This document shows positions 1,647 through 63,364 of a stretch of 64,000 nt of DNA, piece by piece. Source of the stretch: Nannocystis bainbridge (GTDB taxonomy: Bacteria > Myxococcota_A > Polyangia > Nannocystales > Nannocystaceae); assembly GCF_028368995.1 (NCBI RefSeq), contig NZ_JAQNDL010000001.1, positions 2,496,001-2,560,000 of the forward strand. Direction: 5' to 3'. Both the position numbers and the translations under genes were made by a program. Below the pieces are notes generated by a model. It worked only from the letters and a program-made list of their open reading frames with translations, was not told the DNA's origin and made no database searches. Position 1 is the stretch's first letter, and each line of letters begins with the position of its first letter.

Positions 1647-1660
1647 TGTCCTTCAGGACA
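1647..1660. repeat. 14-bp palindrome TGTCC-N4-GGACA (solo copy)
   Basis: TGTCCTTCAGGACA, 3 nt past the stop of the agmatine deiminase gene. Confidence 0.85.
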
Positions 1661-1663
1661 TCA

Positions 1664-2722
1664 TCAGGCTGCGGTGGACGGTCCCACGCTCAGCGGCCGC
1701 GGCAGTTGCATCGTCAGGCAATGCAGGCTGCCGCCCTGTTCGATGAGCGGCAGGCAATCGACGCCCACCACCTCGCGCCCGGGGAACACCCCGGCCAGCC
1801 GCGACAGCGCCTGCGCGTCGGCCGGGTCGTCATAGGTGGGCACCAGCACCGCGCCGTCGAGGATGAGGAAATTGGCGTAGGTCGCGGGCAAGCGGCGCCC
1901 GTCCTCGCCGAAGCGCGGGCGCGGCCACGGCAGCGGCACCAGCTCGTACGGTTCGCCGGCGGCGGTGCGCAGCCCGGCCAGCTCGTCGGCCATGGCCTGC
2001 AGCTCGTCCCAGTGCGAGTCGTCGGCGTCGGTGCAGCTCTGGTAGGCGATCGTGCGCGCGTCGCAGAGCCTGGCCAGCGTGTCGATGTGCCCGTCGGTGT
2101 CGTCGCCCTCGAGCCAGCCGCGGCGCAGCCACAGCACCCGCGTCGCGCCGAGGTGGCGCTGCAGCGCCGACTCGACCTCTGCGAGCCCGAGGCCGCTCCG
2201 GTGATCGGACAGCAAGCAGCGCTCGGTGGTGAGGATCGTGCCCTCGCCGTCGGACTCGACGCTGCCGCCCTCGAGGATAAGCGGCACGACCTCGAGCGGC
2301 GCCGCGCCGAAGGCCCCGAGCGCGTGCAGGCGCTGCGGGACGACGTCGTCCCGGGAAGCCGCGAACTTGCCGCCCCAGCCGTTGAACTCGAAGTCGAGCA
2401 CCCGCGGCGTCCCCGCGATCGTCACCGTCAGCGGCCCGTGATCGCGGGCCCAGGTGTCGTCGCAGGCGACCGCGTGCAGCCGCGCCCGCGCGTCGTCGAC
2501 CCCGGCCCGGCGCAGCAGCGCCCGCACGTGGCCGGCCAGAGCCGCGTCGTGGCACGCGATCACCACGACCTCGCGCAGCGCGATCTGCCGCGCGATCTCG
2601 ACGAACACCGGCTCGACCCGCGCCAGCATCGGGCCCCAGTCGCTGTCCGCGTGCGGCCACGTCAACATCACCCCGGCCTGCGGCGCCCACTCGGCCGGCA
2701 GTACACGTGTCTCTTCAGCCAT
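1664..2722 (-). CDS. Agmatine deiminase / porphyromonas-type peptidyl-arginine deiminase family
   Basis: PAEW...[46 protein letters not shown] and [10 protein letters not shown] (catalytic Cys) motifs. Confidence 0.93.
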
Positions 2723-2760
2723 GTCCCTTCGCCCCTGTCCCTTCAAACATGTCTCTTCAC
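2708..2760. repeat. 14-bp-phased array of degenerate TGTCC-N4-GGACA units
   Basis: TGTC at 2708, 2722, 2736 and 2750 (exact 14-bp phase); overlaps the start codon at 2720-2722. Confidence 0.8.
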
Positions 2761-3174
2761 TCAGGGCGCCGCCGCCAGCAGCGCCCGCAGCCCGATCAGC
2801 CCGCGGACCGACAGCCCCGGCGACCCCGGGACCCCCAGCCGCAGCGGCCCCTCGGCGTCCGGCAGCCCGAGCGCCACGATCACGTCGTCGCGTTTGACCG
2901 TGGCCGCGTCGATCGTCTTCGGCTCGCCGTCAGCCCCGGTCGCCTCGACGTCGACCCCCGCCGGGACCCCCGCCGCCAGCAGCGCCTCGCGCAGCCGCGG
3001 CCCGACGTGGCGAATGTCCCCGTCCTTCACCTCGACCTGCGGCAGCGCGGTCAGGCGGGCCGCCAGCAGCGACTCCGAGCGCGACGCCGTGTGCACCGCG
3101 AGCGCACCGGCCGGCGCCGCGGAGCAGGCGGACACGGCGAGCGCGACGGCGAACGCGAGCGACGGGCGGAGCAT
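2761..3174 (-). CDS. Hypothetical lipoprotein
   Basis: Signal peptide with lipobox (LAVSAC); GC3-rich codons. Confidence 0.65.
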   Translation of the reverse strand: MLRPSLAFAVALAVSACSAAPAGALAVHTASRSESLLAARLTALPQVEVKDGDIRHVGPRLREALLAAGVPAGVDVEATGADGEPKTIDAATVKRDDVIVALGLPDAEGPLRLGVPGSPGLSVRGLIGLRALLAAAP

Positions 3175-3220
3175 GCGTCGGCGAGCATATCCGCGCCGCC
3201 TGCGGCCGACAAGCCGCGGC

Positions 3221-3553
3221 TCACTCGAGGCGCTCGATCGCCGTGCAGTCGCTCGTCACCTGCGCCTTCTGCTTGCCCTGGATCGGCGCGTACGTGGCCA
3301 GCACCTCGCCGTCCTTGCCGATCAAGAACATCTTCTCGGTCCCGCCGGTGATCGTCTCGCGGGCCTCGTTGAGCAGCAGCACCTTGCGCCCGCTGCCCGC
3401 CGCGGCGCCGACCTCGACCGTGACGTCGGTGGCGCAGGCGTTGAAGATCGAGACGTGGAACTCGGTGACCGCGGTCGTCGGCGGCTCGGTCGTGGGACTG
3501 GGTTTGTCACAACCGACGAAGCACAGGAGCAGGGGGATGATGGCCAGTCGCAT
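3221..3553 (-). CDS. Small hypothetical lipoprotein
   Basis: AGGAGG upstream; MRLAIIPLLLCFVGC lipobox-like N-terminus. Confidence 0.75.
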   Translation of the reverse strand: MRLAIIPLLLCFVGCDKPSPTTEPPTTAVTEFHVSIFNACATDVTVEVGAAAGSGRKVLLLNEARETITGGTEKMFLIGKDGEVLATYAPIQGKQKAQVTSDCTAIERLE

Positions 3554-3639: not shown

Positions 3640-3668
3640 TTGACGGCCGGCGCGCCCGCGCGTCTCTT
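3640..3668 (+). promoter_or_regulatory. Putative sigma70-type promoter (leaderless-type)
   Basis: TTGACG-N17-TCTCTT-N7-ATG. The same geometry is kept upstream of the duplicate (6064-6092) although the spacer has diverged. Confidence 0.5.
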
Positions 3669-3675
3669 GGGCCTC

Positions 3676-5817
3676 ATGCATTCGTTACGGACCGTCGTAC
3701 CTCGTCTGTCGCTGCTCCTGTGTCTCCCTCTGACCGCCTGCGGCGACTCGAGCGGCAACGTCACCGACTCGGGCCCCGGCACCACCGCCGGCCCGGCCAC
3801 CGCCACCGATCCCACCGCCACCGGACCGACCACCGCGGGCCCGACCACGGACACGCCCACGACCTCGGCCAGCACCCTCGGCACCGACACCGCCTCGGGC
3901 ACCGAGACCTCGCCCGCCACCGACGGCACCGACACGTCCCCGGGCACCGACAGCACCGACGGCACCGTCACCGACACCACCGGCACCTCGCAGACCAACA
4001 CCGGCACCGACACCGGCAACGGCGTCCTCGACATCAACCCCAAGGACGTCACCCTCGAGATCATCGACGGCGTCATCGTCACCCAGGCTTACACCGCCAC
4101 CTACAACGGCGTCGACGTCACCGGCGACGTCGGCTGGTCGTACAACAAGCCCGAGATCGGCGAAATTCAGCTCAACGCCGAGTTCTTGCCCACCGGCAAC
4201 CTCGGCGGCACCGGCACCCTCAAGGCCACCTATCAGGCCGCGCAGGCCGAGACCTCCGTCTCCGTCAAGATCATCAAGAAGCTCGACCCCGGCGGCATCG
4301 AGCCCGGATGGGGCGACCCCGTCGGCCCCGACCCGTCGATGACGATCGTCTACCCGTACAACGAGACGGTCTTCCCGCTCAAGGTCGCCGCGCCCATCGT
4401 CCAGTGGAACAACGTGCAGAACGGCGACCAGTACAAGCTGCACATCAGCGAGCAGTTCTACGACTACACCCTCTACTTCTCGACCAACGTCCCCGCGCGT
4501 CACCTCATCGACGCCGCCGAGTGGATCGCCATCAGCGAGTCCGGCCAGGGCGCCCAGAGCGACCCGATCTCCTTCACGCTCCAGCGCAAGAGCGGCAACA
4601 ACGTCTACGAGTCGGTCAACCAGACCTGGCGCATGGCCCAGGCGCGCCTGCCCGGCCGCGTCTACTACTGGGAGCTGCCCGGCAACTGCGGCGGCGACGC
4701 CAACGGCCGCGTCCTCAGCATCAAGCCGCAGGAGGCCCAGGCCAACGAGTTCTTCCAGCCCGGCTTCTGCTGGGGCTGTCACACCGTCAGCCGCGACGGC
4801 CGCACCGTCGCCGTCGTCGCCGACAACGGCAACATCCCGTTCCCGACCTTCACCATCGACGTGTCGCAGGAGCCCGCCGTCTACGGCAACATCCAGCCCA
4901 ACCCGGGCCTCGGCGGCACCTTCAGCGCCTTCAACCACGACGGCACCAAGCTGCTCCAGTCCAACGACCCGATCAACGCCGTCGCGTCGGTGCTGCGCGT
5001 CATCGACGCCATGAACGGCCAGATCTTGAACCCCAACGTGCTGCAGCCCGGCTGCGGCGAGCCGGCCTGGTCGCCCGACGGCAAGAAGATCGCCGCCACC
5101 TGCGGCTACCCGAACGGCGGCTGGACCTTCGACGCCAACAACGCCGACCTCGTGGTCGCCGACGTCAACCCCGACGGCATCACCGTCAGCAACCAGAAGG
5201 TCATCGTCCCCAAGGGCGCCGACGTCGGCCGCCCCGCCTACCCCAACTTCTCGCCCGGCAACGAGTGGCTCGTGTTCGGCCGCCCGACCCAGGGTTCGCG
5301 CTCGACCGGCAACGGCAAGCTGTTCCTCGTCGGCGTCGAAGGCAACGACCCGGTCATGCTCGAGAAGGCCAGCTCCGACAACAAGAGCTTCAACCCCACC
5401 TTCGCTCCGCTGCGCGCCGGCGGCTACTTCTGGGTCGTCTTCATGTCCCGCCGCGACTACGGCAACACCCTGGTCGGCGCCAACCGCCAGCAGCTGTGGA
5501 TCACCGCCATCAGCGATCCGCCGAACGCCGGCGGCGACCCCTCCAACCCGCCCTTTTACGTCCGCGGCCAGGAGGACTGCGCCCTGTCCGAGAACGCCTA
5601 CTTCGCTCCGGACCCCTGCATCGAGGAGCCCAACAAGCCCTGCGAAGCGGGCATCGACTGCTGCTCCGGCCACTGCATCCAGATGGGCGAGATCAAGGTC
5701 TGCGGCGAGAAGGGCGCCTGCTCCGAGGCCGGCAACGCCTGCGAGTCCGACGCCGACTGCTGCGAGCCCGACAGCCCCTGCGTCGACGGCTACTGCCAGC
5801 AGATCTTCCCCCAGTGA
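3676..5817 (+). CDS. Surface lipoprotein: Thr-rich stalk, TolB/PD40-like beta-propeller with CxxCH motif, Cys-rich C-terminus (copy 1)
   Basis: Lipobox LTAC; T/S/G-rich linker; PAWSPDGKKI, YPNFSPGNEWLVF and FNPTFAP repeats; CWGCH; C-terminal CC-rich repeats. Confidence 0.88.
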   Translation: MHSLRTVVPRLSLLLCLPLTACGDSSGNVTDSGPGTTAGPATATDPTATGPTTAGPTTDTPTTSASTLGTDTASGTETSPATDGTDTSPGTDSTDGTVTDTTGTSQTNTGTDTGNGVLDINPKDVTLEIIDGVIVTQAYTATYNGVDVTGDVGWSYNKPEIGEIQLNAEFLPTGNLGGTGTLKATYQAAQAETSVSVKIIKKLDPGGIEPGWGDPVGPDPSMTIVYPYNETVFPLKVAAPIVQWNNVQNGDQYKLHISEQFYDYTLYFSTNVPARHLIDAAEWIAISESGQGAQSDPISFTLQRKSGNNVYESVNQTWRMAQARLPGRVYYWELPGNCGGDANGRVLSIKPQEAQANEFFQPGFCWGCHTVSRDGRTVAVVADNGNIPFPTFTIDVSQEPAVYGNIQPNPGLGGTFSAFNHDGTKLLQSNDPINAVASVLRVIDAMNGQILNPNVLQPGCGEPAWSPDGKKIAATCGYPNGGWTFDANNADLVVADVNPDGITVSNQKVIVPKGADVGRPAYPNFSPGNEWLVFGRPTQGSRSTGNGKLFLVGVEGNDPVMLEKASSDNKSFNPTFAPLRAGGYFWVVFMSRRDYGNTLVGANRQQLWITAISDPPNAGGDPSNPPFYVRGQEDCALSENAYFAPDPCIEEPNKPCEAGIDCCSGHCIQMGEIKVCGEKGACSEAGNACESDADCCEPDSPCVDGYCQQIFPQ

Positions 5818-5824
5818 CATGAGA

Positions 5825-5838
5825 TGTCCTTCGGGACA
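5825..5838. repeat. 14-bp palindrome TGTCC-N4-GGACA
   Basis: TGTCCTTCGGGACA, 7 nt after the stop. Confidence 0.9.
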
Positions 5839-6099
5839 TATCGCATGACCCGCGGCCGCCGGCGCGCCATCGCGCCGGCGGCTCTATTGATACGTATTTT
5901 CAATGCTATGATGATTTCGCGCCGCGGCCCGATCGAGGGTCTGCACCGCCGGCCTCAGGGGGATCCGCCCGTCCGCATCGGCTCCGTCGTGCTGTCTCGC
6001 GCCTGCTCCGGGCGGTTTCAAACCTGGCCTTGACGCCCTGTCCCGACTACCCATCGCTGTCGCTTGACGGCCGGCCGTCCTCCGCGTCTCTTGAGCGAC

Positions 6100-8238
6100 A
6101 TGCATTCGTTACGGACCGTCGTCCCGCACCTGTCGCTTGCCCTGTGTCTGCCTCTGATCGGGTGCGGCGACTCGAGCGGCAACGTCACCGACTCGGGCCC
6201 CGGCACCACCGCCGGCCCAGCCACCGCCACCGATCCCACCGCCACCGGCCCGACCACCGCGGGCCCGACCACGGACACGCCCACGACCTCGGCCAGCACG
6301 CTCGGCACCGACACCGCCTCGGGCACCGAGACTTCGCCCGGCACCGACGGCACCGACACGTCCCCGGGCACCGACAGCACCGACGGCACCGTCACCGACA
6401 CCTCCGGCACCTCGCAGACCAACACCGGCACCGACACCGGCAACGGCGTCCTCGACATCAACCCCAAGGACGTCACCCTCGAGATCATCGACGGCGTCAT
6501 CGTCACCCAGGCTTACACCGCCACCTACAACGGCGTCGACGTCACCGGCGACGTCGGCTGGTCGTACAACAAGCCCGAGATCGGCGAAATTCAGCTCAAC
6601 GCCGAGTTCTTGCCCACCGGCAACCTCGGCGGCACTGGCACCCTCAAGGCCACCTATCAGGCTGCGCAGGCCGAGACCTCCGTCTCCGTCAAGATCATCA
6701 AGAAGCTCGACCCTGGCGGCCTCGAGCCCGGCTGGGGCAACCCCGTCGGCCCCGACCCGTCGATGACGATCGTCTACCCGTACAACGAGACGGTCTTCCC
6801 GCTCAAGGTCGCCGCGCCCATCGTCCAGTGGAACAACGTGCAGAACGGCGACCAGTACAAGCTGCACATCAGCGAGCAGTTCTACGACTACACCCTCTAC
6901 TTCTCCACCAACGTCCCGGCCCGTCACCTCATCGACGCCGCCGAGTGGATCGCCATCAGCGAGTCCGGCCAGGGCGCCCAGAGCGACCCGATCTCCTTCT
7001 CGCTCCAGCGCAAGAGCGGCGGTAACCTCTACGAGTCGGTCAACCAGACCTGGCGCATGGCCCAGGCGCGCCTGCCCGGCCGCGTCTACTACTGGGAGCT
7101 GCCCGGCAACTGCGGCGGCAACGCCAACGGCCGCGTCCTCAGCATCAAGCCCCAGGAGGCCCAGGCCAACGAGTTCTTCCAGCCCGGCGGCTGTTGGGGC
7201 TGTCACACCGTCAGCCGCGACGGTCGCACCGTCGCCGCCGTGCGTGACAACGGCTCGCCGTTCCCGACCTTCACCATCGACGTGTCGCAGGAGCCCGCCG
7301 TCTACGGCAACATCCAGCCCAACCCCGGCCTCGGCGGCACCTTCAGCGCCTTCAACCACGACGGCACCAAGCTGCTCCAGTCCAACGACCCGGCCAACGC
7401 GGTCGCCTCGCTGCTGCGGGTGATCGACACCATGAACGGGGCGATCCTCAACCCCAACGTGCTGCAGACCGGCTGTGGTGAGCCGGCCTGGTCGCCCGAC
7501 GGCAAGAAGATCGCCGCCACCTGCGGCTATCCCCAGGGCGGCTGGACCTTCGACCAGAACAACGCCGACCTCGTGGTCGCCGACGTCAACCCCGACGGCA
7601 TCACCGTCAGCAACCAGAAGATCATCGTCCCCAAGGGCGCCGACGTCGGCCGCCCGGCCTACCCCAACTTCTCCCCCGGCAACGAGTGGCTCGTGTTCGG
7701 TCGCCCGACCCAGGGTTCGCGCTCGACCGGCAACGGCAAGCTGTTCCTGGTCGGCGTCGACGGCAACGACCAGGTCATGCTCGAGAAGGCCAGCTCCGAC
7801 AACAAGAGCTTCAACCCCACCTTCGCTCCGCTGCGCGCCGGCGGCTACTTCTGGGTCGTCTTCATGTCCCGCCGCGACTACGGCAACACCCTCGTCGGCG
7901 CCAACCGCCAGCAGCTGTGGATCACCGCCATCAACGATCCGCCGAACGCCGGCGGCGACCCCTCCAACCCGCCCTTCTACGTCCGCGGCCAGGAGGACTG
8001 CGCCCTGTCCGAGAACGCCTACTTCGCTCCGGACCCCTGCATCGAGGAGCCCAACAAGCCCTGCGAAGCGGGCATCGACTGCTGCTCCGGCCACTGCATC
8101 CAGATGGGCGAGATCAAGGTCTGCGGCGAGAAGGGCGCCTGCTCCGAGGCCGGCAACGCCTGCGAGTCCGACGCCGACTGCTGCGAGCCCGACAGCCCCT
8201 GCGTCGACGGCTACTGCCAGCAGATCTTCCCCCAGTGA
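6100..8238 (+). CDS. Near-identical tandem paralog of 3676-5817 (copy 2)
   Basis: Long identical nucleotide tracts shared with copy 1; lipobox LIGC; same domain order. Confidence 0.88.
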   Translation: MHSLRTVVPHLSLALCLPLIGCGDSSGNVTDSGPGTTAGPATATDPTATGPTTAGPTTDTPTTSASTLGTDTASGTETSPGTDGTDTSPGTDSTDGTVTDTSGTSQTNTGTDTGNGVLDINPKDVTLEIIDGVIVTQAYTATYNGVDVTGDVGWSYNKPEIGEIQLNAEFLPTGNLGGTGTLKATYQAAQAETSVSVKIIKKLDPGGLEPGWGNPVGPDPSMTIVYPYNETVFPLKVAAPIVQWNNVQNGDQYKLHISEQFYDYTLYFSTNVPARHLIDAAEWIAISESGQGAQSDPISFSLQRKSGGNLYESVNQTWRMAQARLPGRVYYWELPGNCGGNANGRVLSIKPQEAQANEFFQPGGCWGCHTVSRDGRTVAAVRDNGSPFPTFTIDVSQEPAVYGNIQPNPGLGGTFSAFNHDGTKLLQSNDPANAVASLLRVIDTMNGAILNPNVLQTGCGEPAWSPDGKKIAATCGYPQGGWTFDQNNADLVVADVNPDGITVSNQKIIVPKGADVGRPAYPNFSPGNEWLVFGRPTQGSRSTGNGKLFLVGVDGNDQVMLEKASSDNKSFNPTFAPLRAGGYFWVVFMSRRDYGNTLVGANRQQLWITAINDPPNAGGDPSNPPFYVRGQEDCALSENAYFAPDPCIEEPNKPCEAGIDCCSGHCIQMGEIKVCGEKGACSEAGNACESDADCCEPDSPCVDGYCQQIFPQ

Positions 8239-8245: not shown

Positions 8246-8265
8246 ACATGTCCTCCGGGACATGT
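8246..8265. repeat. Extended palindrome ACATGTCC-TCCG-GGACATGT
   Basis: Read directly; lies between the stop codon and the terminator. Confidence 0.9.
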
Positions 8266-15778: not shown

Positions 15779-16750
15779 TCACGAGCGCTTGTACGTCAGC
15801 GCGTACTTGAGCGGCTCCGGCAGCCGGCTCGACGTGATCGTCACGCTCATCGTCAGCCTGTCGCCCGTCTCGTCGAGCGTGAACGTGCTGCGGCGCCCGC
15901 CGTCGTCGGCCTTGAAGTCCATCACCAGGCGACCCTTGACGATCGAGAACGCGACCGTCAGCGGCGAGCCGTCGTCGGAGGTCCACGCCACCGCCGAGCC
16001 GCCGATCGTGCCCGTGACCGTGCGCCCCGCGGCGAACGTCGCAGTCACTCTGGTGCCGTCGACCGCGAACGTGATCTGATCGCGGATGGGGTTGGCCGCG
16101 GTGAGCCGCTTGCGGCCGATCCCGCGGATCAGCGCGTTCAGCTGCTGCACCGTCGTCTCGATCGCCTCGGTCAGCTTGGTGCGCTGGGCCTCGCCGCCGG
16201 CGTAGCGGAACGTCCCGGCGAAGCGCGCCTGCTCGGGCTGGGCCGGCGCCGCCGGGGCTGGCGCGGGCGTCGGTGCAGGCGTCGGCGCGGGCGTCGGCGC
16301 GGGCGTCGGTTGCGGGATGTCCTTCGGGACAGGTTCCACCGGCGCGGGCGTCGTCGGTGACTTGTCCTTCGGGACAGGTTGATTCTCGCCCGTCGGCTTG
16401 ACCTTCTTCGCCGGCGCCGCCTTCTCGCCGTCCGGCTTGACCTCGGCGACCGCGCTCGCGGGGGTCGGCTCCGCGGTCGTCGGCCCCGGCTCACCCGCCA
16501 CCGTCGTCGGCGCCGGCTCGCCCGCCACCGCCGTCGTCGGCGCCGGTTCGGCGGCCGCGATCACCGGCACGGTCTTCGCCTCCTCCGCCGCGTCCTCGAC
16601 CTCCGCCTTGGCCCCCTTGGCCTCGTCGGCGAACGGATCGTCGAACTCCTCGGGCGCGGCCGCGGGCGCCGGCGGGGGCGTTGCTTCACCGCATCCGACA
16701 GCGAGGACGGTCGCGCACACGAGGACTCGGCGGAGCGGAACCAGGAGCAT
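15779..16750 (-). CDS. Hypothetical lipoprotein with long Pro/Ala linker
   Basis: LAVGC lipobox; PAPT repeats; globular C-terminal domain. Start placed at 16750 from the extended -10 element TGcTATGGT 7 nt upstream. Confidence 0.75.
   Translation of the reverse strand: MLLVPLRRVLVCATVLAVGCGEATPPPAPAAAPEEFDDPFADEAKGAKAEVEDAAEEAKTVPVIAAAEPAPTTAVAGEPAPTTVAGEPGPTTAEPTPASAVAEVKPDGEKAAPAKKVKPTGENQPVPKDKSPTTPAPVEPVPKDIPQPTPAPTPAPTPAPTPAPAPAAPAQPEQARFAGTFRYAGGEAQRTKLTEAIETTVQQLNALIRGIGRKRLTAANPIRDQITFAVDGTRVTATFAAGRTVTGTIGGSAVAWTSDDGSPLTVAFSIVKGRLVMDFKADDGGRRSTFTLDETGDRLTMSVTITSSRLPEPLKYALTYKRS
16318..16376. repeat. Two perfect TGTCCTTCGGGACA copies inside a CDS
   Basis: 16318-16331 and 16363-16376; both are read as PVPKD on the minus strand. 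Confidence 0.88.
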
Positions 16751-18768: not shown

Positions 18769-18880
18769 ACATGTCACATTGGACATGTCCTATATGCCAT
18801 GTCCAATGCGACATGTCATCGCTCGCAGCGAGCGGACGGCCGTGACGCCACCCGACCTTCGGGACATGTCCCCGAAAACA
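18769..18880. repeat. 14-bp-phased array forming a long inverted repeat, plus a further unit
   Basis: TGTC at 18772, 18786, 18800 and 18814; arms ACATGTCACATTGGACATG / CATGTCCAATGCGACATGT (1 mismatch); another unit at 18867. Confidence 0.88.
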
Positions 18881-24509: not shown

Positions 24510-25649
24510 GTGGTGCCCGCGCCTGCCTCCACCCTCGCCCTCGTGCTCGCGCTCGCGCCCGCGGGCTTCGACCTCGAGTGGCTGGCCCCGGAAGGTTGCC
24601 CGGGAGCCGACGCGGTCGTCACGGCCACCGCCCGGCTGCTCGGCCGGCCCGCCGAGGTCGACCCCTCGCGGCGCGTCCGCGCCCGCGCCGTGGTCGTCCG
24701 CGAGCCCCGCGGCTTCCGCCTCGATCTCGAGCTGCAGAGCGGCGCCGGCCTCGATCGCCGCAGCCTCCGCGATCGCCGATGCCAGGTGCTGGCTGACGCG
24801 GCCGCCAAGATCGTCGCCACCGCCGTCGACCCCAGCCTCGCCGCCGGGGTCCCGCCGGTGCTGCCGCCGGAGTCCGATGAGACATGGCGTGAAGGACATG
24901 CCCCATCGAACATGTCCCCGAGTCTCGCCCCTCCGAATCCCCTGTCCGATGGGACATGGCGTGAAGCACCTGCCCCATCGACCATGTCCCCGGGGTCAGC
25001 CCCAGCGCTCGTCGAGGGCCCGCCCACGGCCCCCGTCTCGCCGCTCGCGCCCGCGGGAGACGACCCACTCGCTACGCCGCCCGCGGGCGACGATCCGCTC
25101 GCTACGCCCGCCCCGACGTCGCCCCCGCCCGACCCGCTGCGCGCCTCGCTGCGCCTCGCCGGCGTGTTCGACCAGGGCAGCCTGTCTGGCCCGACCGGCG
25201 GCCTCGCGCTCGCGCTCGGCGTCATGCGCCGGCGCTTCCGCGTCGAGCTCGGGTTCGCCGGCCTGGCCCCGCGCGAGGCCCGACCGGACCCGGCCGAGCC
25301 TGCCGGTGCACGCCTGTCCTTGTGGACAGCCACGCTCCGCGCCTGCGGCGTCGCCGGGCTGCGGCCGCGGCTCGAGCTCGGCGGCTGCGGCGGCCTCGAG
25401 GCCGGGGCCTTGCTCGGCGCCGGCTTCGGGGTCGAGGCCGCGCGTACGCGCGCGCAGCCGTGGCTCGCGGTGGTCGTCGGGCCCGAGCTCGCGGTCCCCG
25501 TCGCGCCGCGACTCGCGGTCACCCTCGGGGTCGACGCGGTGGTCCCGCTGGTGCGCCCGCAGTTCGTCCTGGACGGCGTCGGATCGGCGTTTCGCGCCAA
25601 CCCTGCGGCCTTCCGCGCCGTCCTCGGCCTGCAGCTTAGAATCCCGTGA
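24510..25649 (+). CDS. Hypothetical exported protein with C-terminal beta-strand (outer-membrane-like) region; first gene of the ECF operon
   Basis: GTG start after TACTCT; WLAPEGCP...C..LADAAA.IVA.AVDP N-domain; Pro-rich linker; amphipathic strands; overlaps the next start (GTGA). Confidence 0.7.
   Translation: MVPAPASTLALVLALAPAGFDLEWLAPEGCPGADAVVTATARLLGRPAEVDPSRRVRARAVVVREPRGFRLDLELQSGAGLDRRSLRDRRCQVLADAAAKIVATAVDPSLAAGVPPVLPPESDETWREGHAPSNMSPSLAPPNPLSDGTWREAPAPSTMSPGSAPALVEGPPTAPVSPLAPAGDDPLATPPAGDDPLATPAPTSPPPDPLRASLRLAGVFDQGSLSGPTGGLALALGVMRRRFRVELGFAGLAPREARPDPAEPAGARLSLWTATLRACGVAGLRPRLELGGCGGLEAGALLGAGFGVEAARTRAQPWLAVVVGPELAVPVAPRLAVTLGVDAVVPLVRPQFVLDGVGSAFRANPAAFRAVLGLQLRIP
24871..24998. 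repeat. Two 14-bp-phased arrays duplicated at 72 bp inside a CDS
   Basis: Units at 24871/85/99/913 and 24943/57/71/85; peptides ETWREGHAPSNMSP and GTWREAPAPSTMSP. Confidence 0.8.
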
Positions 25650-29243: not shown

Positions 29244-29953
29244 CTCTGCTCCTGACCTGCCCCGACGACCCTGTCGAAGGGGACATCTTCGTCCCAGCCG
29301 GCGACGATCGCCACCGACGCGCTGGCGCCGAGGCGCGACGCCCCGGCGGCCAGCATGGCCCTCGCGGTCGCGGCGTCGGCGATCCCGCCGCTGGCCTTGA
29401 CCCCCACGTCCGGGCCGACGGCCGCGCGCATGCGCTGGACCGCCGCGACCGTCGCTCCGCCCGGGCCGAAGCCGGTCGAGGTCTTCACGAACCGCGCCCC
29501 CGCGGCCACGCTGAGGCGGCACGCGACGTCGATCTCGTGCGGCTCCAGCAGCGCCGTCTCGAGGATCACCTTCGTCAGGTGGGCCCCGTCGCCCGCGCGC
29601 ACCACTCCCTGGATGTCCGAAAGGACAGCCGCTTCATCGCCGTCGCGCAGGGCTCCGAGCGCGATCACCATGTCGAGCTCCTCGGCCCCGTCGGCCAGCG
29701 CCTGCGCCGCCTCGGCCGCCTTGATCGCCGGCGAGTTGGCGCCGAGCGGGAAGCCGATCACCGTGCACACCTTCGCGCCCGCGCCCAGCGACGCCAGCGT
29801 GCGGCGGGCCAGCGCGACCCGGCTCGGCTGCACGCATACGCTGAAGAACCCGCCCTCGGCGGCCTCGCGGCACAGCTGCTCGACCTGCGCCGCGGTCGCG
29901 GTCGCGCGCAGCAGCGTGTGGTCGATGTGCGCGGCCAGCTCGGCGCGGCGCAT
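29240..29953 (-). CDS. deoC: Deoxyribose-phosphate aldolase
   Basis: IDHTLL, VCTVIGFPLG, ELDMVI, KVILET, FVKTSTGF, VKASGGI and RLGAS motifs. Confidence 0.96.
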   Translation of the reverse strand: MRRAELAAHIDHTLLRATATAAQVEQLCREAAEGGFFSVCVQPSRVALARRTLASLGAGAKVCTVIGFPLGANSPAIKAAEAAQALADGAEELDMVIALGALRDGDEAAVLSDIQGVVRAGDGAHLTKVILETALLEPHEIDVACRLSVAAGARFVKTSTGFGPGGATVAAVQRMRAAVGPDVGVKASGGIADAATARAMLAAGASRLGASASVAIVAGWDEDVPFDRVVGAGQEQR

Positions 29954-34773: not shown

Positions 34774-34843
34774 TGCCCGAACGAACATGCTCGAACGGAC
34801 ATGCCCCAGCGCGCATGTCCCGATGAACATGCTGCGAAGGACA
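34774..34843. repeat. Five-unit 14-bp-phased array between convergent genes
   Basis: Units at 34774, 34788, 34802, 34816 and 34830. Confidence 0.85.
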
Positions 34844-39769: not shown

Positions 39770-40722
39770 CGCCCGCCCGCTCCCTCGTGCTCGCTCGCCT
39801 CGCCACCGTCCTCGTCCTCGCCGCCGGCCTCGCCGGTTGCAAGGCCGGGGCGCGCGCCGGCGCGGCGCCTGCCGTGGTGCTCGACCCTTCGGGCTCCGAG
39901 CCCACGGCGATCAGTGACCTGCCGATCTTGCGGCAGAAGGCGGCGATGGGCCTGGTCGACGTCGTGCGCGCCGAGCTCGTGCCGCGCCTCGCCGAGGCCG
40001 CCGACGCCGGCCCCGATCCCGGGCGCGACGCCCTCCGCGCCCTCGCCATCGAGCTCGCGCTGCGACAGGACGACCAGCCCGCCGCGCTCGAGCAACTGCA
40101 GCGGCTGGCCCGCGACCTCGACCGCCTCGGCCCGAGCGCCAGCGGGGCCGAGCGAGCCCGCTGGCACATCCTCCACGGCGCCCTGCTGAGCGCCCAGCAG
40201 CGCTACGCCGAGGCGCGCGGGCAGAACCTCGAGGCCCTCGGCGCCCTCGATCTCACGCGCGATCCCGGCCTCGCCGGCGACGCCTTCCGCGGCCTCGCCC
40301 GCCAGCAGCTCGGCCTCGGTCAGCCCGACAAGGCGCTCGAGTCGGTGCGCCGCGCCATGGCTGTCCACAAGGACAGCCTCGCCGTGTTCGAGGACGGCGT
40401 GCTCGCCGTCGACATCCTGATCGCCGTCGACCAGCCGATCGAGGCCGTCATCGCCGCCGGCAAGCTCTACGACGACGCGATCGCCGACGTCGGCCCCGAC
40501 ACCCTCGCCCACGCCGAGGCCCTCGCCGCCGCCGCGTCCGCCACCTTCGCCTCCGGCGACCTCGACGCCTCGATCAGCTTCCTCACCGACGCCCGCAAGA
40601 TCTGGCGCGAGCTCCAGGCCGCCCGCAGCGACCCCAGCCTGCCGCTCAGCGCCCGGCTCGAGCGCCGCCTCGGCGAGCTCGACGCTGTCACGCGCCGCGC
40701 CTCCACCGGCACGGCCCCGTAG
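39766..40722 (+). CDS. TPR-like helical lipoprotein
   Basis: ATGA overlap with the previous gene; LAGC lipobox; Ala/Leu-rich helical repeats. Confidence 0.75.
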   Translation: MTPARSLVLARLATVLVLAAGLAGCKAGARAGAAPAVVLDPSGSEPTAISDLPILRQKAAMGLVDVVRAELVPRLAEAADAGPDPGRDALRALAIELALRQDDQPAALEQLQRLARDLDRLGPSASGAERARWHILHGALLSAQQRYAEARGQNLEALGALDLTRDPGLAGDAFRGLARQQLGLGQPDKALESVRRAMAVHKDSLAVFEDGVLAVDILIAVDQPIEAVIAAGKLYDDAIADVGPDTLAHAEALAAAASATFASGDLDASISFLTDARKIWRELQAARSDPSLPLSARLERRLGELDAVTRRASTGTAP

Positions 40723-40739: not shown

Positions 40740-41246
40740 TGTCCCGAAGGACAGCATGACGAGCACGAGCCTCACGCCCGCGCTCGCCTCACCTGTCCCC
40801 GCGGACATCCGCCGCTCCGCGACGAGCCCTGTCGCTCTGCGTGCTCCGGCCCAACGGCTCGCCTCGCTGTCCTCGAGGCCGCATGGGTCTCGGCTGGGCT
40901 CGCAACGCCGCTCGCGCTCTGTCTCCTTCGCCCCCCACGGGTGGGCCTCGCTTCGCTACCTGTCCTCGAGGCCAGCTCACCCTTCCGCATCTGTGTCGTC
41001 CGCGACTGGGCGCTCGCCCGCGACTTTTCCGCCTGTCTACAAGGACAGCCCAGATCGCCTCCGAATCACCTGTCCCTTCGGACATCTCATCTATTCCCCC
41101 CTCACCGGCCTCTGCAGCCGTCCTCGGCTCCACCGCCGCGCGCGCCGCGATCCGTCTCCCATTTCATCTGTCCCCGAGGACACATCATTTTTCTCCCGGT
41201 TCTCGGCTCCCCGCGGTCGCCGCCGCATCACATGTCCCGAGGGACA
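40740..41246. repeat. Cluster of dispersed TGTCC-N4-GGACA copies in a long intergenic region
   Basis: Copies at 40740, 40794, 40868, 40961, 41034, 41071, 41169 and 41233, plus weaker ones at 40830 and 40920. Confidence 0.88.
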
Positions 41247-47533: not shown

Positions 47534-47544
47534 CTCTCGGGACA

Positions 47545-47600
47545 TGTCCTCTCCGACATGCCCTTTCTTACATGTCTTTGAAGGCATGTCCGATCGGACA
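47545..47600. repeat. Four-unit 14-bp-phased array
   Basis: Units at 47545, 47559, 47573 and 47587 (last one TGTCCGATCGGACA). Confidence 0.88.
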
Positions 47601-49761: not shown

Positions 49762-49824
49762 TGTCCTCCGGGACAGGCAGACGCGGACGCTGCGGCGCGC
49801 GGCCACAACCTGTCCTCCGGGACA
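49762..49824. repeat. Two identical TGTCCTCCGGGACA copies
   Basis: 49762-49775 and 49811-49824, directly after the prfC stop. Confidence 0.9.
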
Positions 49825-49923: not shown

Positions 49924-52668
49924 ATGAGGGTCATGCCCGTCCAGCCCGGGATCGACGGCGACGCCGACACTCTCGGCGCCGACCGGTTGTCCGCGCCGTC
50001 GCCGCCCGACCCGACGCGCGAGACCGACGGTGGCTCGTTCCTTAGCACCGAGGCCGCGGGCGAGCCCGGCGGCACCCGGCGCAGCCGCGGCCCCGCCACC
50101 GGCGACGAGATCGGCGACTTCACGCTCGAGCGGCGCCTCGGCGAGGGCGGCATGGGCGTGGTGTTCGCCGCGTGGAGCCACAAGCTGGCCCGCCGGGTCG
50201 CCATCAAGATCCCGACCCGCAGCCTCGACGAGGTCGCGCGCGCCCGCATCGTCCGCGAGGCCCAGAGCCTGGCCCAGGTCGACCACCCCCACGTGGTCCG
50301 CGTGTACGAGATCGGCGAGGAGGGCGAGAACCTCTTCATCGCCATGGAGCTGGTGGAGGGCGTCACCCTCCGCAGATGGCTGACGGAGGCGCCGCGCGGC
50401 TGGCGGGAGATCGTCCAGATGTACCTGCAGGCCGGCCACGGGCTGGCGGCGGCGCATCACCAGGGGCTGCTGCACCGCGACTTCAAGCCGAGCAACATCC
50501 TGGTCGACGGCGAGGGTCGCGTGCGCCTGATCGACTTCGGCCTCGCGCGCATGCGCGACTCGAGCCGCGACATCGCGGCGACGGTCGACGGCGACGAGCC
50601 CTCGGGCCCCGAGTTCGTGCTGACGAGCCGCGCCGGCACGCCGCGCTACATGGCGCCCGAGGTCTACGACACCGGCGCGACGGTCGACGCGCGCAGCGAC
50701 CAGTACTCGTTCTGCGTCGCGCTGTGGGAGGCCCTGTTCGGCGAGCTGCCCGACTGGCGCCGCTCGGCCCCGCAGCCGAAGACGGTGCCGCCGTGGCTGC
50801 TCGCGCTGCTCCGCCGCGGCCTGGCGCTCGACCGCGAGGGCCGGTTCCCGACCATGGACGCGCTGCTGGCCGAGCTGACCGCCGGCCTGCAGCCGCGCCG
50901 CCGCCGGCCGCTGGCGCTCGTGGCCCTCGCCGCGACCGTCGGGGCCGGGCTCGGCGCGGCGCTCCAGACCCTCGGCCCGGCCGAGGCCTGCGCCGAACCG
51001 GCCGCCCTCGCCGACGCGCTGTGGCCGGCCGACCAGCGCGCGGCCCTGCGAGAGTCTGGCCATTCGGTCATGTCCGTAGAGACATGGTTCTCGGAACATG
51101 TCCTCGAGTGGGCCGACGCCAGCGCCCAGGCCTGCCGGACCCGCGACGAGCTCGCCCGCGCCCGCGCGGCGACCTGCCTCGACGAGCGCGAGCAGGCGCT
51201 GCGCGCGGTCGCGTCCGCGCTGGTGGCCGCGCCCGCGGGCCCCGAGGGCGCACCGAAGCCCGGCTGGGACGGCCGCCTGGCCCTGTGGGACCGCGCGCTG
51301 CCGCCGGCCGCCGACTGCGTCGACCCGCGCCGCCTGGCCTTCACCGTCGATCCGCCGGTCCATGTCGACCTGTCCGAAACGACATGGCTCGAAGAACAGC
51401 TGCACCTGGGCGCCGCGCTCGCGCTCGCGGGCGACCCGGCGGCCGCGGCGGCGCGCCTGCACCCGGCCCGCGTGCGCGCCGAGCAGGCCGGTGATCGCTG
51501 GCGCCAGGCCCGGGCCGACCTCGCGCTCGGCGTCGCCGCCATGCACCGCGGCGACGAGACCGGCGCGCGCCGCCGCTTCGAGACCGCGGCCAGCGACGCC
51601 GGGGCCGTGGGCGACGATTTCCTGGCCGCCGACGCCTGGCGCTGGCTGGTGTTCGTCGACGCGGCCCGCGACCCCGACCCCGAGCACGCGCTGCTGCTGC
51701 TGCCGCACGCCGAGAGCGCGCTCTACCGCATCGGCCAGGCGACCGGGCCGCGCATGATCGACCTGCAGCTGTCGGCGGCGTGGGCCGAGCTGCGCCGCGG
51801 CGACCTCGACGCAGCCCACGCCCGCCTGGCCCGCGCGCTGCAACAAGGCAAGGCCGACGAGGCGCTGGCCGCACGGATCTTGCGACACCACGCAGAGCAG
51901 GCCCACCAGCGCGGGCAGTCGCTGCCGGCCGTCGATCTGGCCCGCCAGGCGCTGAGCCTGCAGCTGCGCCGCGAGGGCCCGGACTCGCGCGGCGTCGCCG
52001 ACACCCGCCAGAGCCTGGCCCGCTATCAGCTCGCCGCCGGTCAGTACGCCGAGGCCGAAGCCAACCTGCGCGCCGCCCTGGCCGTCGCCGCCGACGACCC
52101 CGACGCCCGCGAGCGCGCCAGCCTCGAGCTCGACCTCGCCGTCGTCCACTACACCCGCGACGACCTCGCCGCCGCGCGCGCGGCCGCCGATCGCGCCGCC
52201 TCGGCCTTCGCCGAGGTCGTCGATCCGCTGGCCGGTCGCGCCGACCGGATCGCGCTCGCCAAGCTCCGCGGTGACCTGTCCCTCGGGACAGACGATCGCG
52301 CCGCCGTGCGTCACTACGAGGTCGGCCTCGCGCTGGTCGCCGCCGGCCCCGCGCTGCCGGAGACGCGCGACAACGCGGTCGCCATGCGCGTCGGGCTCGC
52401 GGCCGCGCGCCGTCAGCTCGGCGACCTGCCGGGCGCCCTCGACGCCATGCGGCACGCGCTCGCCGACCTCGCGGGCGTCGCCGCGGACGTCGCCGCTTAC
52501 GCCCATGGCACCGCCGCCGAGCTCGATCTCGGGCGCGGCGCCAGGCGCGAGGCCGAGGCCCACTGTCGCCGCGCGCTCGCGCTGCTGCGCGACGACGACC
52601 CGATGGCCCGCGAGCTGCGCCAGCTGCTCGTACGGATCCGAGCCGCCGGCCCCGCGCGGCGAAAATAA
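49924..52668 (+). CDS. Ser/Thr protein kinase with TM segment and TPR-like C-terminus
   Basis: LGEGGMGVV, VAIK, HRDFKPSN, DFGLA, GTPRYMAPE and DQYSFCV motifs. Confidence 0.95.
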   Translation: MRVMPVQPGIDGDADTLGADRLSAPSPPDPTRETDGGSFLSTEAAGEPGGTRRSRGPATGDEIGDFTLERRLGEGGMGVVFAAWSHKLARRVAIKIPTRSLDEVARARIVREAQSLAQVDHPHVVRVYEIGEEGENLFIAMELVEGVTLRRWLTEAPRGWREIVQMYLQAGHGLAAAHHQGLLHRDFKPSNILVDGEGRVRLIDFGLARMRDSSRDIAATVDGDEPSGPEFVLTSRAGTPRYMAPEVYDTGATVDARSDQYSFCVALWEALFGELPDWRRSAPQPKTVPPWLLALLRRGLALDREGRFPTMDALLAELTAGLQPRRRRPLALVALAATVGAGLGAALQTLGPAEACAEPAALADALWPADQRAALRESGHSVMSVETWFSEHVLEWADASAQACRTRDELARARAATCLDEREQALRAVASALVAAPAGPEGAPKPGWDGRLALWDRALPPAADCVDPRRLAFTVDPPVHVDLSETTWLEEQLHLGAALALAGDPAAAAARLHPARVRAEQAGDRWRQARADLALGVAAMHRGDETGARRRFETAASDAGAVGDDFLAADAWRWLVFVDAARDPDPEHALLLLPHAESALYRIGQATGPRMIDLQLSAAWAELRRGDLDAAHARLARALQQGKADEALAARILRHHAEQAHQRGQSLPAVDLARQALSLQLRREGPDSRGVADTRQSLARYQLAAGQYAEAEANLRAALAVAADDPDARERASLELDLAVVHYTRDDLAAARAAADRAASAFAEVVDPLAGRADRIALAKLRGDLSLGTDDRAAVRHYEVGLALVAAGPALPETRDNAVAMRVGLAAARRQLGDLPGALDAMRHALADLAGVAADVAAYAHGTAAELDLGRGARREAEAHCRRALALLRDDDPMARELRQLLVRIRAAGPARRK

Positions 52669-53785: not shown

Positions 53786-53792
53786 GGCGCGC

Positions 53793-54092
53793 TCACAGCA
53801 GCGCCAACCGCTCGACCGGCACGCCGCAGCGGCGCGCCGTCGCCACCTCGAGCCGCACCCATCGTGACAGTCGGCTGTGCGGCGTGGCCACGTAGAGCAG
53901 GCGGTCGGCCGAGCGGACCCATTCGGCGATCGTGCGCTGCGCCGAGGTCGACCACCGCTGCGGATAGTCGAGGAACACGAATTCGTCGCACGCGCGCAGC
54001 CGCTCGAGGTGCGCTAGCGACAGCGGCAGGTCGCGGACCGCGTAGCTGATGAACGTGCGCCGGCGGTCGAACCGGCGGAGCGGGTTAAGCAT
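53793..54092 (-). CDS. Minimal TIR-domain protein
   Basis: Box-1-like TFISYAVRD, FVFLD, SADRLLYVATPHS, and SRWVRLE carrying the Glu equivalent to the TIR catalytic residue. Confidence 0.78.
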   Translation of the reverse strand: MLNPLRRFDRRRTFISYAVRDLPLSLAHLERLRACDEFVFLDYPQRWSTSAQRTIAEWVRSADRLLYVATPHSRLSRWVRLEVATARRCGVPVERLALL

Positions 54093-61374: not shown

Positions 61375-61696
61375 CGCTGCTTCCTCTCCGGTCCGCGGAC
61401 GACTGTCCCGCGCGGGCTGCATGTCCATGCAATGATCCATTTCCCGGTGCGAGCAATGAGCAATCAGCGCGTTCGCGCGACCCGGCGCGCCCGCGATCGC
61501 GGCCGCCCGCGGCCGTTCGCCGGCGATCGCCGTTCGCACGCCGCTCCTGCCCGGTGCGAGTCGCGCACGCCGGAGCACCGGTGTGACGCGTCGCGCCTGG
61601 CCCGCCGCACGCGAAGGCCGCGAAGCCCGGGTCACCCCCGTGCATTCGCGGCCAATCGTCGGACCGTATGCGACGTTTCTCTGCGCCCCGCCGCGA

Positions 61697-62749
61697 TCAC
61701 AGCCGGCGACGCGGACGATCCTTGCGCAGCCGCGGCCCGGAGGCGCGACGAGCCAGCTCGTCCATGAAGCCGACATCGTCGAGGTCCGGCACGCGCGTGC
61801 GGATCTGCGACATCAGCTCCTCGACGTCGGGCTTGTCGCTGCCGCGGTGGAGCTCGTCGACCAGGCTGAGCAAGAGCCGCTCGGAGCGGGCGCGGTCGGC
61901 CTCGATCCGGCGCCGCAGCACCGACGAGCGGACCACCAGGGCGATCACGATCGCCAGCGCGAAGCCCAGCACCCAGGCGATGATCTGGCTGATCTGGATG
62001 CCCTTGTGCAGCGTGTGCTCGAGCCGGTTCCACAGCGAATCCTCGAACTGACCGAGATCGCGCCGGACCTGGAGCTCGGACAGCGCGTCGGCGGCGCCGA
62101 GCACGAGCTGCTTGCTCGCCTCACGCGACACGATGCTCACCACCGGCACCAGCTCGTCGCGCAGCGCCGCGCGCAGGGCCGGGGCCAGGTCCGCGCGCAC
62201 CATCTTCGCCATGCCCGGGCCCAGGTCCTGCTCCATCACCTTGCGCAGCGCCGGGCCGAGGTCGTCCGACAGGCCCTTGCCAGCCGACTGCGTCAGCGCC
62301 GTGACCGTCGAGCGCGTCAACGCGTCGACCATCGCGCTCGCCTCCTGGCGCGTCTTCGGCGACAGCGCGGTGTCGATGTTCTCGCGGATCGTCGCCGCCA
62401 GCGCCGGGCTGATCTGCTCGCGCAGGCTGGTGCTCGCGGCCTTGGCCATCGCGTCGAGGTAGCGGCTGCTCGCCTGGCGCAGCGCCGCCTGCCGCTGCTC
62501 GTCGGTGAGCCCGTCCAGCGCCCCACCGACCAGCGTCGCCGTCAGCTCGCGGCTCGCGGCCTGGAGCTGCGGGTCCTTCAGCAGCTTCTGGATCCGCGCC
62601 TGCGAGTCCGGGTCCTCGAGGAACCCCACTGTCTCGTCCAGCGTCGCCGGTACTGCCGTGCGGACCACTCCTTCGGCGGTGATACAGCCGGGAGCCGCGG
62701 AGACCAGGAGAGCGATCAGAGAGACGCCGCGCAGGTTGATGGGTCGCAT
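61697..62749 (-). CDS. Helical lipoprotein with C-terminal TM segment
   Basis: APGC lipobox-like; DLGPAL/DLGPGM/DLAPAL helical repeats; TM IIAWVLGFALAIVIALVV. Confidence 0.75.
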   Translation of the reverse strand: MRPINLRGVSLIALLVSAAPGCITAEGVVRTAVPATLDETVGFLEDPDSQARIQKLLKDPQLQAASRELTATLVGGALDGLTDEQRQAALRQASSRYLDAMAKAASTSLREQISPALAATIRENIDTALSPKTRQEASAMVDALTRSTVTALTQSAGKGLSDDLGPALRKVMEQDLGPGMAKMVRADLAPALRAALRDELVPVVSIVSREASKQLVLGAADALSELQVRRDLGQFEDSLWNRLEHTLHKGIQISQIIAWVLGFALAIVIALVVRSSVLRRRIEADRARSERLLLSLVDELHRGSDKPDVEELMSQIRTRVPDLDDVGFMDELARRASGPRLRKDRPRRRL

Positions 62750-63030
62750 GCGAGAGCCATGGACAGCTTCGCGTCGCGAGCCAGCGCCCGATGCATCGGA
62801 CCCGCTGCAGGCCCGAGGCCACGCCCGGCGAAACCCCGGAAAGCGGGCCGCGAGCGCCCGATCCGGCCGTCACCAGCGAGCGCGCGTCGTGGCCTCAAGA
62901 TCCCATAAGAAGCCTGCTTGGCGGAAGATGCGCGGCAGTTTTCATCGCGAATCGACCTCGTCGCTTGACACGGTCCGCACCTCGATCACGGTTCCGTTGG
63001 GAGCCGCAAGGCCCCGAATGGAGGTCCACC

Positions 63031-63183
63031 GTGCTTTACTGGTCCATCGTCTTCTTCATCGTCGCCCTCGTCGCCGCCATCTTCGGCTTCGGTGGCCTGG
63101 CCGCCGAGACCGCCTACATCGCCAAGATCCTGGCGTTCATCGGCCTCATCCTCGCCGTCGTCACCTTCGTGATGCGCCGCTGA
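63031..63183 (+). CDS. DUF1328 / UPF0391 (YtjA-like) small membrane protein
   Basis: GGAGG then GTG; MLYWSIVFFIVALVAAIFGFGGLAAETAYIAKILAFIGLIL. Confidence 0.9.
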   Translation: MLYWSIVFFIVALVAAIFGFGGLAAETAYIAKILAFIGLILAVVTFVMRR

Positions 63184-63204
63184 TTCGAGCGCGACTGTTC
63201 AACC

Positions 63205-63364
63205 TGTCCCGCGGGACAGCTCGCCTCGCCGACCCCGCGAGGCTCGAGTTGTCCCGCAGGCCCCCTCGCCGCGGAGCCGTGACTCACGACTCCGCGCTCG
63301 TCATTTCCGGCGCGCCGCCGCGCCGTCGCTACCACCGGTCCCAGAGGACATGTCCCGCAGGACA
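63205..63364. repeat. TGTCC-N4-GGACA copies between convergent genes
   Basis: TGTCCCGCGGGACA at 63205; tandem pair GGTCCCAGAGGACA-TGTCCCGCAGGACA at 63337-63364. Confidence 0.88.

Follow-up and report, generated by a model that had tools for sequence, protein, structure and literature searches.

The 64,000-nucleotide stretch of Nannocystis bainbridge DNA analysed here (the window: bases 2,496,001-2,560,000 of contig 1, in an assembly of 11.05 Mb, 5 contigs and 71.5% G+C) is punctuated by a short interrupted palindrome, TGTCC-N4-GGACA, which recurs throughout the genome. This dyad is a strongly enriched, lineage-specific iterated element with a new combination of properties: its copies gather just after stop codons, abut in phased arrays and also occur inside genes. 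Tentatively, and with somewhat less than an even chance in our estimation, we propose that it is a selected duplex-DNA site for a putative dimeric protein acting at gene ends. The protein reader, the duplex form in which it would be read and the job that it would do are all what we infer from the distribution and evolution of the copies.

The window contains 20 perfect copies, whereas 100 dinucleotide-preserving shuffles gave a mean of 0.07 and a maximum of 1, in keeping with an earlier reading of the same DNA (hereafter the original prediction), according to which the motif should be very rare by chance. The 17 perfect copies listed there are all present and three further ones, at 24943, 25315 and 40362, had been overlooked. 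Its 13 near-perfect copies comprise ten sites with one arm mismatch (21683, 29272, 32151, 36126, 38107, 41034, 46151, 51371, 52892 and 60879) and three that fall short of that description with two (38464, 39296 and 46073), and the window holds 45 sites with at most one arm mismatch. The degenerate arrays reported there are real, Tandem Repeats Finder (TRF) detecting 14-bp-period arrays at 2708-2759, 18769-18817, 34774-34832 and 47541-47576. A genome-wide count against a Markov null and spacer controls, which had been proposed as a check, upheld the enrichment and confined it to N4. The 11.05 Mb contain 1987 perfect copies, where Markov models of orders 1-4 expect 4.5-13.5 (an excess of 150-440 times), and the spacers N0-N3 and N5-N12 yield 0-16 copies each, including the codon-phase-matched N1 (0), N7 (2) and N10 (11). 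Read backwards, the pattern has 3 perfect copies in the same genome. The number of sites rises to 6245 when one of the ten arm positions may mismatch, and the backwards control then has 204. The perfect copies are spaced more widely than the 2 kb first estimated, with one per 3.2 kb in the window and one per 5.6 kb genome-wide.

The strongest feature of the element, its concentration right after stops and in convergent gaps, had escaped the original prediction. Genes were delimited with a crude codon-usage open reading frame (ORF) caller (7932 genes, 82% coding), whose stops are exact and whose starts are approximate. Copies occur both inside and outside genes, as had been stated: 1247 of the 1987 perfect copies lie in the 18% of the genome called non-coding and 727 (about 37%) fully inside called genes. 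Convergent gaps are the richest, with 1.50 copies per kb, followed by tandem gaps (0.60), divergent gaps (0.22) and genes (0.07-0.08). Counted per gap, the values are 0.33, 0.15 and 0.087 for the three gap types, a ratio of about 2:1:0.5, which is the pattern expected of a gene-end element. If one arm mismatch is tolerated, 743 of 1297 convergent gaps (57%) hold a copy, as do 1017 of the 3796 tandem and 239 of the 1448 divergent ones. The proportion rises to 63-65% for convergent gaps of 60-500 bp and drops to 1 of 234 for divergent gaps shorter than 120 bp. Within the final 30 nt of genes the density stays below 1 per nt, but over the 20 nt that follow the stop it reaches 16-19 per nt; 348 perfect copies start 0-19 nt past a stop. 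Before starts, it is about ten times lower than after stops. Given this last figure and the near-empty short divergent gaps, the placement is not that of a promoter-type operator.

The in-gene copies include 340 in confident genes longer than 900 nt and are spread evenly along genes. They use the three frames 413, 251 and 63 times, an imbalance that follows codon preference, GTC and GAC being preferred codons and TGT, GGA and ACA rare ones. On a larger scale, copies are found on all 5 contigs. Regular spacing or an ori/ter pattern was considered and rejected, the full 200-kb bins being over-dispersed (10-64 copies each). With clustered spacing (coefficient of variation 1.45) and gaps of up to 78 kb, the copies lack the even spread that the suggested nucleoid-organising site might have. 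The eight largest motif-poor stretches have a mostly lower G+C content (0.68-0.71; one 0.72), with lower codon scores in six of them. When 20-kb samples of three of these stretches were compared with five same-genus genomes, no collinear counterpart was found; the window aligns collinearly with all five, at 82-96% identity. In one motif-poor island (contig 1, 1,165,001-1,185,000), bases 19221-19581 form a 360-bp segment found 90-96% identical at several unlinked places in the five same-genus genomes, and this segment is probably part of a mobile element.

The extended consensus of the unit, RCM-TGTCC-YYRR-GGACA-KGY, is symmetric on both sides. It agrees with the flanks C[C/A] and [G/T] described earlier (C at -2 in 67%; A in 52% and C in 43% at -1; T in 54% and G in 39% at +14). 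The centre, which had been described as free, is biased to YYRR, and self-complementary centres are common (CCGG 81, TCGA 66). Besides solo units, abutting units form arrays with a strict 14-bp phase, (GGACATGTCC-N4)n, that the original prediction had passed over. Because units abut, the everted form GGACATGTCC is itself abundant, with 956 occurrences genome-wide. Direct TGTCC...TGTCC distances peak solely at periods 14, 28 and 42 (1321, 637 and 587 occurrences, against 5 at period 7). Likewise, CATG-N10-CATG occurs 3736 times, compared with 72 for N9 and 262 for N11 spacing. Chains of at least four in-phase half-sites number 1615 versus 1 for the backwards control, and the longest comprises 16 half-sites. 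Since N4 varies from unit to unit, the arrays are not fresh tandem duplications. The dyad, and not the half-site, is the unit: of 12351 TGTCC in the genome 5434 are partnered, the 6917 orphans fall below the median count of compositionally equivalent 5-mers, and only 210 of 2129 ACATGTCC lack any partner. The asymmetric flank classes show little orientation bias (138 vs 91 in tandem gaps, 145 vs 155 in genes). The densest cluster of the genome (contig 3, about 1,097,300-1,098,100) consists of approximately 120-bp repeats, each carrying GGTCC-N4-GGACA, with no called gene. It was rejected as a special locus as it turned out to be a coding-like repeat, and the run may be a Gly/Pro-rich coding region missed by the caller.

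How a copy can come into being is illustrated by the dyad at 29614..29627, which lies in a DeoC-family aldolase gene (29240-29953, minus strand; Pfam). A codon alignment of 29 orthologues has no indel at the site, and the dyad occurs in 6 of the 9 orthologues from the genus and in 0 of the 20 from other genera. The outgroups already read ...GTC/GTG xxx xxx GAC ATC..., and in the six large-genome species substitutions complete the motif, the first T being provided by a rare GCT or ACT codon. Judging from this alignment, the copy arose in place by point substitution. This in-gene copy and those in a kinase gene and a TPR-protein gene were confirmed by Pfam and orthologue alignment. The dyads at 40362 and 52277 retain the rare codons GCT (6 of 6 species) and ACA (5 of 6), respectively.

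Conservation was assessed on a five-species alignment of the window. All five species share a perfect dyad at 8 of the 20 perfect sites, and at 4 of them the dyad is perfect in this genome alone. At intergenic sites, identity to the four other species is 0.76 for the arms, 0.55 for the centre and 0.45 for the flanks. The arms are fully kept at 3 of 13 intergenic sites (background 5.1%) and at 5 of 7 genic sites (background 17%). For 13 in-gene dyads, third-codon-position identity amounts to 181/192 (0.943) in the arms, 1304/1560 (0.836) in the flanks and 45/60 (0.750) in the centre. In the closest pair, 95% identical, 16/20 and 17/20 dyads are identical, even where flanks are merely 30-60% identical.

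The survey of related myxobacterial genomes that had been proposed earlier showed that the motif is enriched in the genus. It is present in 10 of 10 other same-genus genomes, with 114-2090 copies each; 87 and 161 copies were counted in two further genera of the family and 0-8 in the remaining 28 relatives. As a density, this is high throughout Nannocystis, 10-19 per Mb in the two further genera and about 1 per Mb or lower elsewhere. A scan for the double unit in one genome for each of 185,579 species returned 49 stretches, from Nannocystis, a set of Mesorhizobium and three singletons, and only in Nannocystis records does it form a dispersed repeat. The Mesorhizobium matches were rejected as the same element, because they belong to a different, perfect palindrome of about 44 bp whose inner bases coincide. 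This palindrome, (C)6TC-TGTCCTGCCGGACA|TGTCCGGCAGGACA-GA(G)6, is found in loci from 14 records, twice and 67 bp apart in one locus, and looks like a separate REP-like family (REP, repetitive extragenic palindrome). The double unit was not found in 2.9 million viral contigs, and Rfam gave no family match in the window. A scan for 5-Nk-5 palindromes, which recovers TGTCC-N4-GGACA from 200 kb of its own genome, revealed no other hyper-abundant palindrome in small samples (200 kb and 64 kb) of two sister-genus genomes. The element had been put forward as undescribed, and no description of it was found in the full-text literature searched. In the matched passages of PMC3696898, repeat-related terms concerned only mentions of CRISPR.

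The manner in which the arms vary argues for a site read on duplex DNA. Variants with one altered arm greatly outnumber compensated doubles (T3C 381 and its mirror 314, versus 146 doubles), and the doubles come close to the product expectation once a compositional background is added. Among 15 orthologous dyads in 5 species (375 cells), 19 arm changes are one-sided and 1 is compensated. Two independent half-sites at fixed spacing, as in 5-N4-5 operators, are thus what the dyad presents, and independence of the half-sites at a rigid distance points to a symmetric dimer on duplex DNA. The half-site statistics therefore fit the dimeric-protein site of the original prediction, though the copies do not show the even spread that a nucleoid-organising role might give. 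Moreover, a copy made in place by substitution inside a gene and then held suggests a recognition site kept by selection and not transposed.

In the mechanism that we envisage, a putative symmetric dimer would bind the duplex, each subunit reading one half-site independently at a rigid centre-to-centre distance of 9 bp, and dimers on abutting sites could align at intervals of 14 bp. It would most likely work at gene ends, where it could insulate neighbouring transcription units, as a roadblock or as an aid to termination. Alternatively, it might handle the supercoils that pile up between convergent genes, a task for which REP elements, or bacterial interspersed mosaic elements (BIMEs), together with gyrase have been proposed in enterobacteria. 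A more far-reaching proposal, which we consider rather unlikely, is that Nannocystis has a dedicated gene-end marking system, in which a lineage-specific protein would occupy dyads and arrays on duplex DNA after most transcription units. Such a system could serve as a protein-dependent bidirectional terminator, an insulator or a topoisomerase recruiter, could stand in for the U-tract terminators that are seemingly lacking in this 71.5% G+C genome, and would use the in-gene copies as further stations.

Several points weigh against the dimer site. The conservation figures come from one 64-kb window and from related, non-independent species. In unalignable intergenic DNA the aligner may pair non-orthologous copies and so inflate conservation, and with crude gene calls some copies may be wrongly classed as in-gene or intergenic. 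A Pfam search did not reveal the reader among 40 of the 108 proteins that flank the dyads of 54 divergent gaps no longer than 320 bp, the 40 being those of up to 260 amino acids. No cognate protein had been evident to the original prediction either. The Rrf2, ArsR-type, ECF (extracytoplasmic function) sigma and TetR proteins encoded beside divergent-gap dyads were rejected as a lead for lack of a common theme. The remaining points favour a hairpin. The flank pair -1/+14 is Watson-Crick in 1066 of 1987 copies versus 899 expected, a weak but real covariation, while the pairs beyond it are at expectation. Predicted folds reach -4.9 kcal/mol for the core, about -10.5 for 7-8-bp versions and -16.5 for the two-unit form with its 10-bp stem. 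In silico the stem forms in 67-70% of native contexts. Finally, the position after stops is equally expected of a terminator or of a hairpin at the mRNA end.

The hairpin is the likeliest of the rivals, although we regard it as somewhat improbable. It holds that the dyad acts as RNA or single-stranded DNA, as a bidirectional terminator or a 3'-end protecting stem-loop, with both strands yielding an identical stem. The stem would probably be read by a nuclease or an RNA-binding protein with sequence specificity, which would explain both the fixed stem and the strict tetraloop. The stems just described would suit such a role, as would the 348 copies just past stops, the 57% occupancy of convergent gaps and the 2:1:0.5 ratio, which is as expected per gene end. 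A further point in its favour is that sense-strand loops lean mildly towards pyrimidines (TTCG 29 vs CGAA 17). Classical terminators are at chance in the part of the window from 34000 to 53999, where 3 hairpins plus T-run were found versus 3.3 expected, two of the three being this motif. A comparison of fold energies between gaps with and without the motif carries no information, any 44-nt window folding at about -23 kcal/mol, divergent gaps included. Seven metatranscriptome or metagenome runs, available as contigs and each containing 5-11% of the sampled words, are of a kind that does not show transcript ends. What speaks against a hairpin is, first, that no T-run is seen at +14 to +33 of the dyads, and that G-U is not preferred to C-A on the sense strand (337 vs 294 in tandem gaps, 285 vs 356 in genes). 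Together with the one-sided arm changes, this leaves neither the U-tract nor the compensatory change and G-U tolerance of intrinsic terminators. Second, the 727 copies in genes are evenly spread and conserved, and a terminator there would be harmful. Third, self-complementary centres are common, and loop length is held at least 100-fold more strictly than folding needs.

A selfish REP/BIME-like repeat, copied by an unrecognised enzyme, tolerated after genes, decaying and devoid of host function, we judge distinctly unlikely. It would account for the high copy number, the restriction to one genus, the arrays of abutting units, the turnover of copies in fast-evolving intergenic DNA and the depletion where promoters lie, as for REPs. 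The one-arm variants could resemble decay from a master sequence, and the motif-poor stretches of 50-78 kb are compositionally atypical and non-syntenic, as is the case with REPs and foreign DNA. However, the REP-associated tyrosine transposase (RAYT; IS200/IS605-type Y1 transposase, PF01797) was found in none of the 11 same-genus genomes, including this one, by a search that gave matches in 6 of 14 control genomes and in 6 relatives lacking the motif. The DeoC copy, moreover, arose by substitution and not by insertion. Reading frames would be disrupted by an insertion of 14 bp, yet confident long genes contain 340 copies, the arms are conserved above neighbouring synonymous sites and intergenic flanks, and the variable N4 between array units speaks against recent tandem copying. 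The REP-RAYT mechanism cannot accommodate the element, and its separation from classic REPs and miniature inverted-repeat transposable elements (MITEs) in the original prediction thus stands.

The last rival, a drive or self-marker motif akin to HIP1, uptake sequences or Chi, supposes that mutation and bias build up the dyad because a DNA-processing system (uptake, recombination, repair, an orphan methyltransferase, or a defence sparing marked DNA) favours DNA that bears it. It would fit the in-place origin and subsequent conservation inside a gene, the frame use that tracks codon preference, the genus-specific sequence at about one copy per 5.6 kb and the depletion in non-syntenic, compositionally atypical DNA. 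We nevertheless consider it very unlikely, because, in contrast to uptake sequences and Chi, the half-site shows no enrichment by itself, a genome-wide drive does not predict the at least 8-fold non-coding excess and sharp gene-end bias, exact 14-bp arrays are not a feature of HIP1, uptake sequences or Chi, and the absence of the double unit from the viral contigs gives no sign of phage mimicry, albeit weakly.

Within the window, many dyads follow genes closely. The perfect dyad at 1647..1660 is 3 nt past the stop of a PAD_porph gene (1664-2671, minus strand; Pfam), and those at 5825..5838 and 8249..8262 are 7 and 10 nt past the stops of the plus-strand genes 3667-5817 and 6091-8238; all three are perfect in 5 of 5 species. 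These two genes are adjacent paralogues of 716 and 715 amino acids without a Pfam match, with internal 9-45-nt repeats rich in GGCACCGAC and a shared ending ...cagatcttcccccagtga. An array of ACATGTCC-type units with a 14-bp period (18769..18817) starts 8 nt past the stop of a VWA gene (17592-18761, plus strand). A short array of the same period with the perfect dyad 47587 (47541..47600) begins 8 nt past the stop of gene 46166-47533 (plus strand). The perfect dyad at 49762..49775 is 2 nt past the stop of prfC (release factor RF3, 48077-49759, plus strand), and that at 49811..49824 lies in the gap between prfC and the kinase gene. Near the end of the window, a small DUF1328 gene has its stop 22 nt before the intergenic perfect dyad at 63205..63218, which 4 of 5 species have in perfect form. 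The last one, at 63351..63364, is 8 nt past the stop of a CMD-family gene (63373-63831, minus strand; perfect in 3 of 5 species).

Other intergenic features include a degenerate 14-bp-period array at 2708..2759 (3.7 copies by TRF) and another at 34774..34832, which fills the convergent gap from 34757 to 34863. A cluster at 40740..41246, between the TPR gene and lgt, consists of the perfect dyads 40740, 40794, 41071, 41169 and 41233 together with degenerate ones. Its flanks are unalignable between species, yet 41169 and 41233 hold their position in 6 species. Next to it, about 250 bp upstream of lgt (41255-41510) are near-invariant in six species, while the DNA just before is unalignable. This segment contains TTGAC...TATAAC-like boxes and a GGGAATAAA...GGATCC...GGGGATCCCC stretch, has no Rfam match and, from these features, may be a promoter plus structured leader. 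In the convergent gap at about 28370-28405 (genes 27023-28342 and 28392-29243), one same-genus genome has about 47 kb of extra DNA compared with this genome and four others.

Among the perfect dyads within coding sequence or predicted ORFs, those at 16318..16331 and 16363..16376 lie 45 nt apart in a predicted low-complexity ORF (15779-16750, minus strand). The first keeps its arms in 5 of 5 species with a centre of TTCG versus GCAG, and the second is identical in all five. The weakly supported ORF 24333-25649 contains the dyad at 24943..24956, perfect in this genome alone, and that at 25315..25328, which lies just upstream of an ECF sigma gene (25646-26245) and is perfect in 5 of 5 species. 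The dyad with the GCT codon (40362..40375) is in the TPR-protein gene 39766-40722 (plus strand) and is identical in its 6 species. The one with the ACA codon (52277..52290) is in the Ser/Thr-kinase/TPR gene 49933-52668 (plus strand) and has one mismatch in the sixth species. At 13722-14711, a predicted 329-amino-acid ORF without a Pfam match is found here, where the other four species have a run of 4-6 dyads 30-100 bp apart; on this comparison the locus has been remodelled.

Few features of bacterial chromosomes are as poorly understood as iterated short palindromes such as REPs, HIP1 and uptake sequences, and a well-defined new case offers a fresh handle on their origin and readers. The present one is unusually clean, with ten fixed bases, one spacer, exact 14-bp arrays, a gene-end location, birth inside a gene and no RAYT. 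Its hosts are cultivable myxobacteria with 11-13-Mb genomes of very high G+C content, in which the ending and insulation of transcription units are poorly known.

Compared with known systems, the element resembles REPs and BIMEs as a lineage-specific short palindrome with hundreds to thousands of copies, arrays of abutting units, scarcity in foreign DNA and enrichment after gene ends and between convergent genes. BIMEs have been proposed to bind gyrase and IHF, which provides a model for a topological role at gene ends. However, the present unit is just 14 bp long and perfectly symmetric, without a 5' GTAG-like tag or doublet asymmetry. With 37% of its copies in predicted genes it is not essentially extragenic, and it further differs by its in-place substitution origin (in one gene), its exact 14-bp period and the lack of a Y1/RAYT transposase. 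MITEs are 50-500 bp long, with terminal inverted repeats and a target-site duplication, whereas this unit is 14 bp and its DeoC copy involves no indel relative to 28 orthologues. Neisseria dRS3 is a 20-bp repeat with an 8-bp centre that flanks larger repeat units and is an integration target for phage or IS110-type elements. It and the Neisseria intergenic mosaic elements share with our element a fixed-arm dyad, a variable centre, hundreds of copies and intergenic mosaics, but here the unit is 14 bp with a 4-bp centre.

Rho-independent terminators likewise lie after stops and between convergent genes and have hairpin potential, but the present element has a fixed stem sequence and loop length, no U-tract, no compensatory evolution and many in-gene copies. 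DNA uptake sequences (DUS) of Neisseria and uptake signal sequences (USS) of Pasteurellaceae are asymmetric sequences of 9-12 nt that are enriched singly and, downstream of genes, often form inverted pairs. The element is similar to them in its genus-specific sequence, its kilobase-scale density and its in-gene copies in tolerated frames. Its single half-site is however not enriched (the 6917 orphan TGTCC being below the median and the partnerless ACATGTCC only 210 of 2129), which contradicts the uptake-sequence-like motif suggested earlier. The over-represented palindrome HIP1 of cyanobacteria (GCGATCGC) occurs in and between genes, is made and kept by substitution and is conserved at orthologous places. 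It is matched here by an excess of at least 100-fold in coding and non-coding DNA, but HIP1 is a continuous octamer, and the present element an interrupted dyad with a strict 4-bp centre, a gene-end bias and phased arrays. In its architecture, the dyad is comparable to FNR-type 5-N4-5 operators (TTGAT-N4-ATCAA), which also pair two inverted half-sites of 5 bp, each read independently, at a centre-to-centre distance of 9 bp. Those operators, however, lie in promoters and number tens to hundreds, whereas this dyad is present in thousands of copies after genes and in 1 of 234 short divergent gaps.

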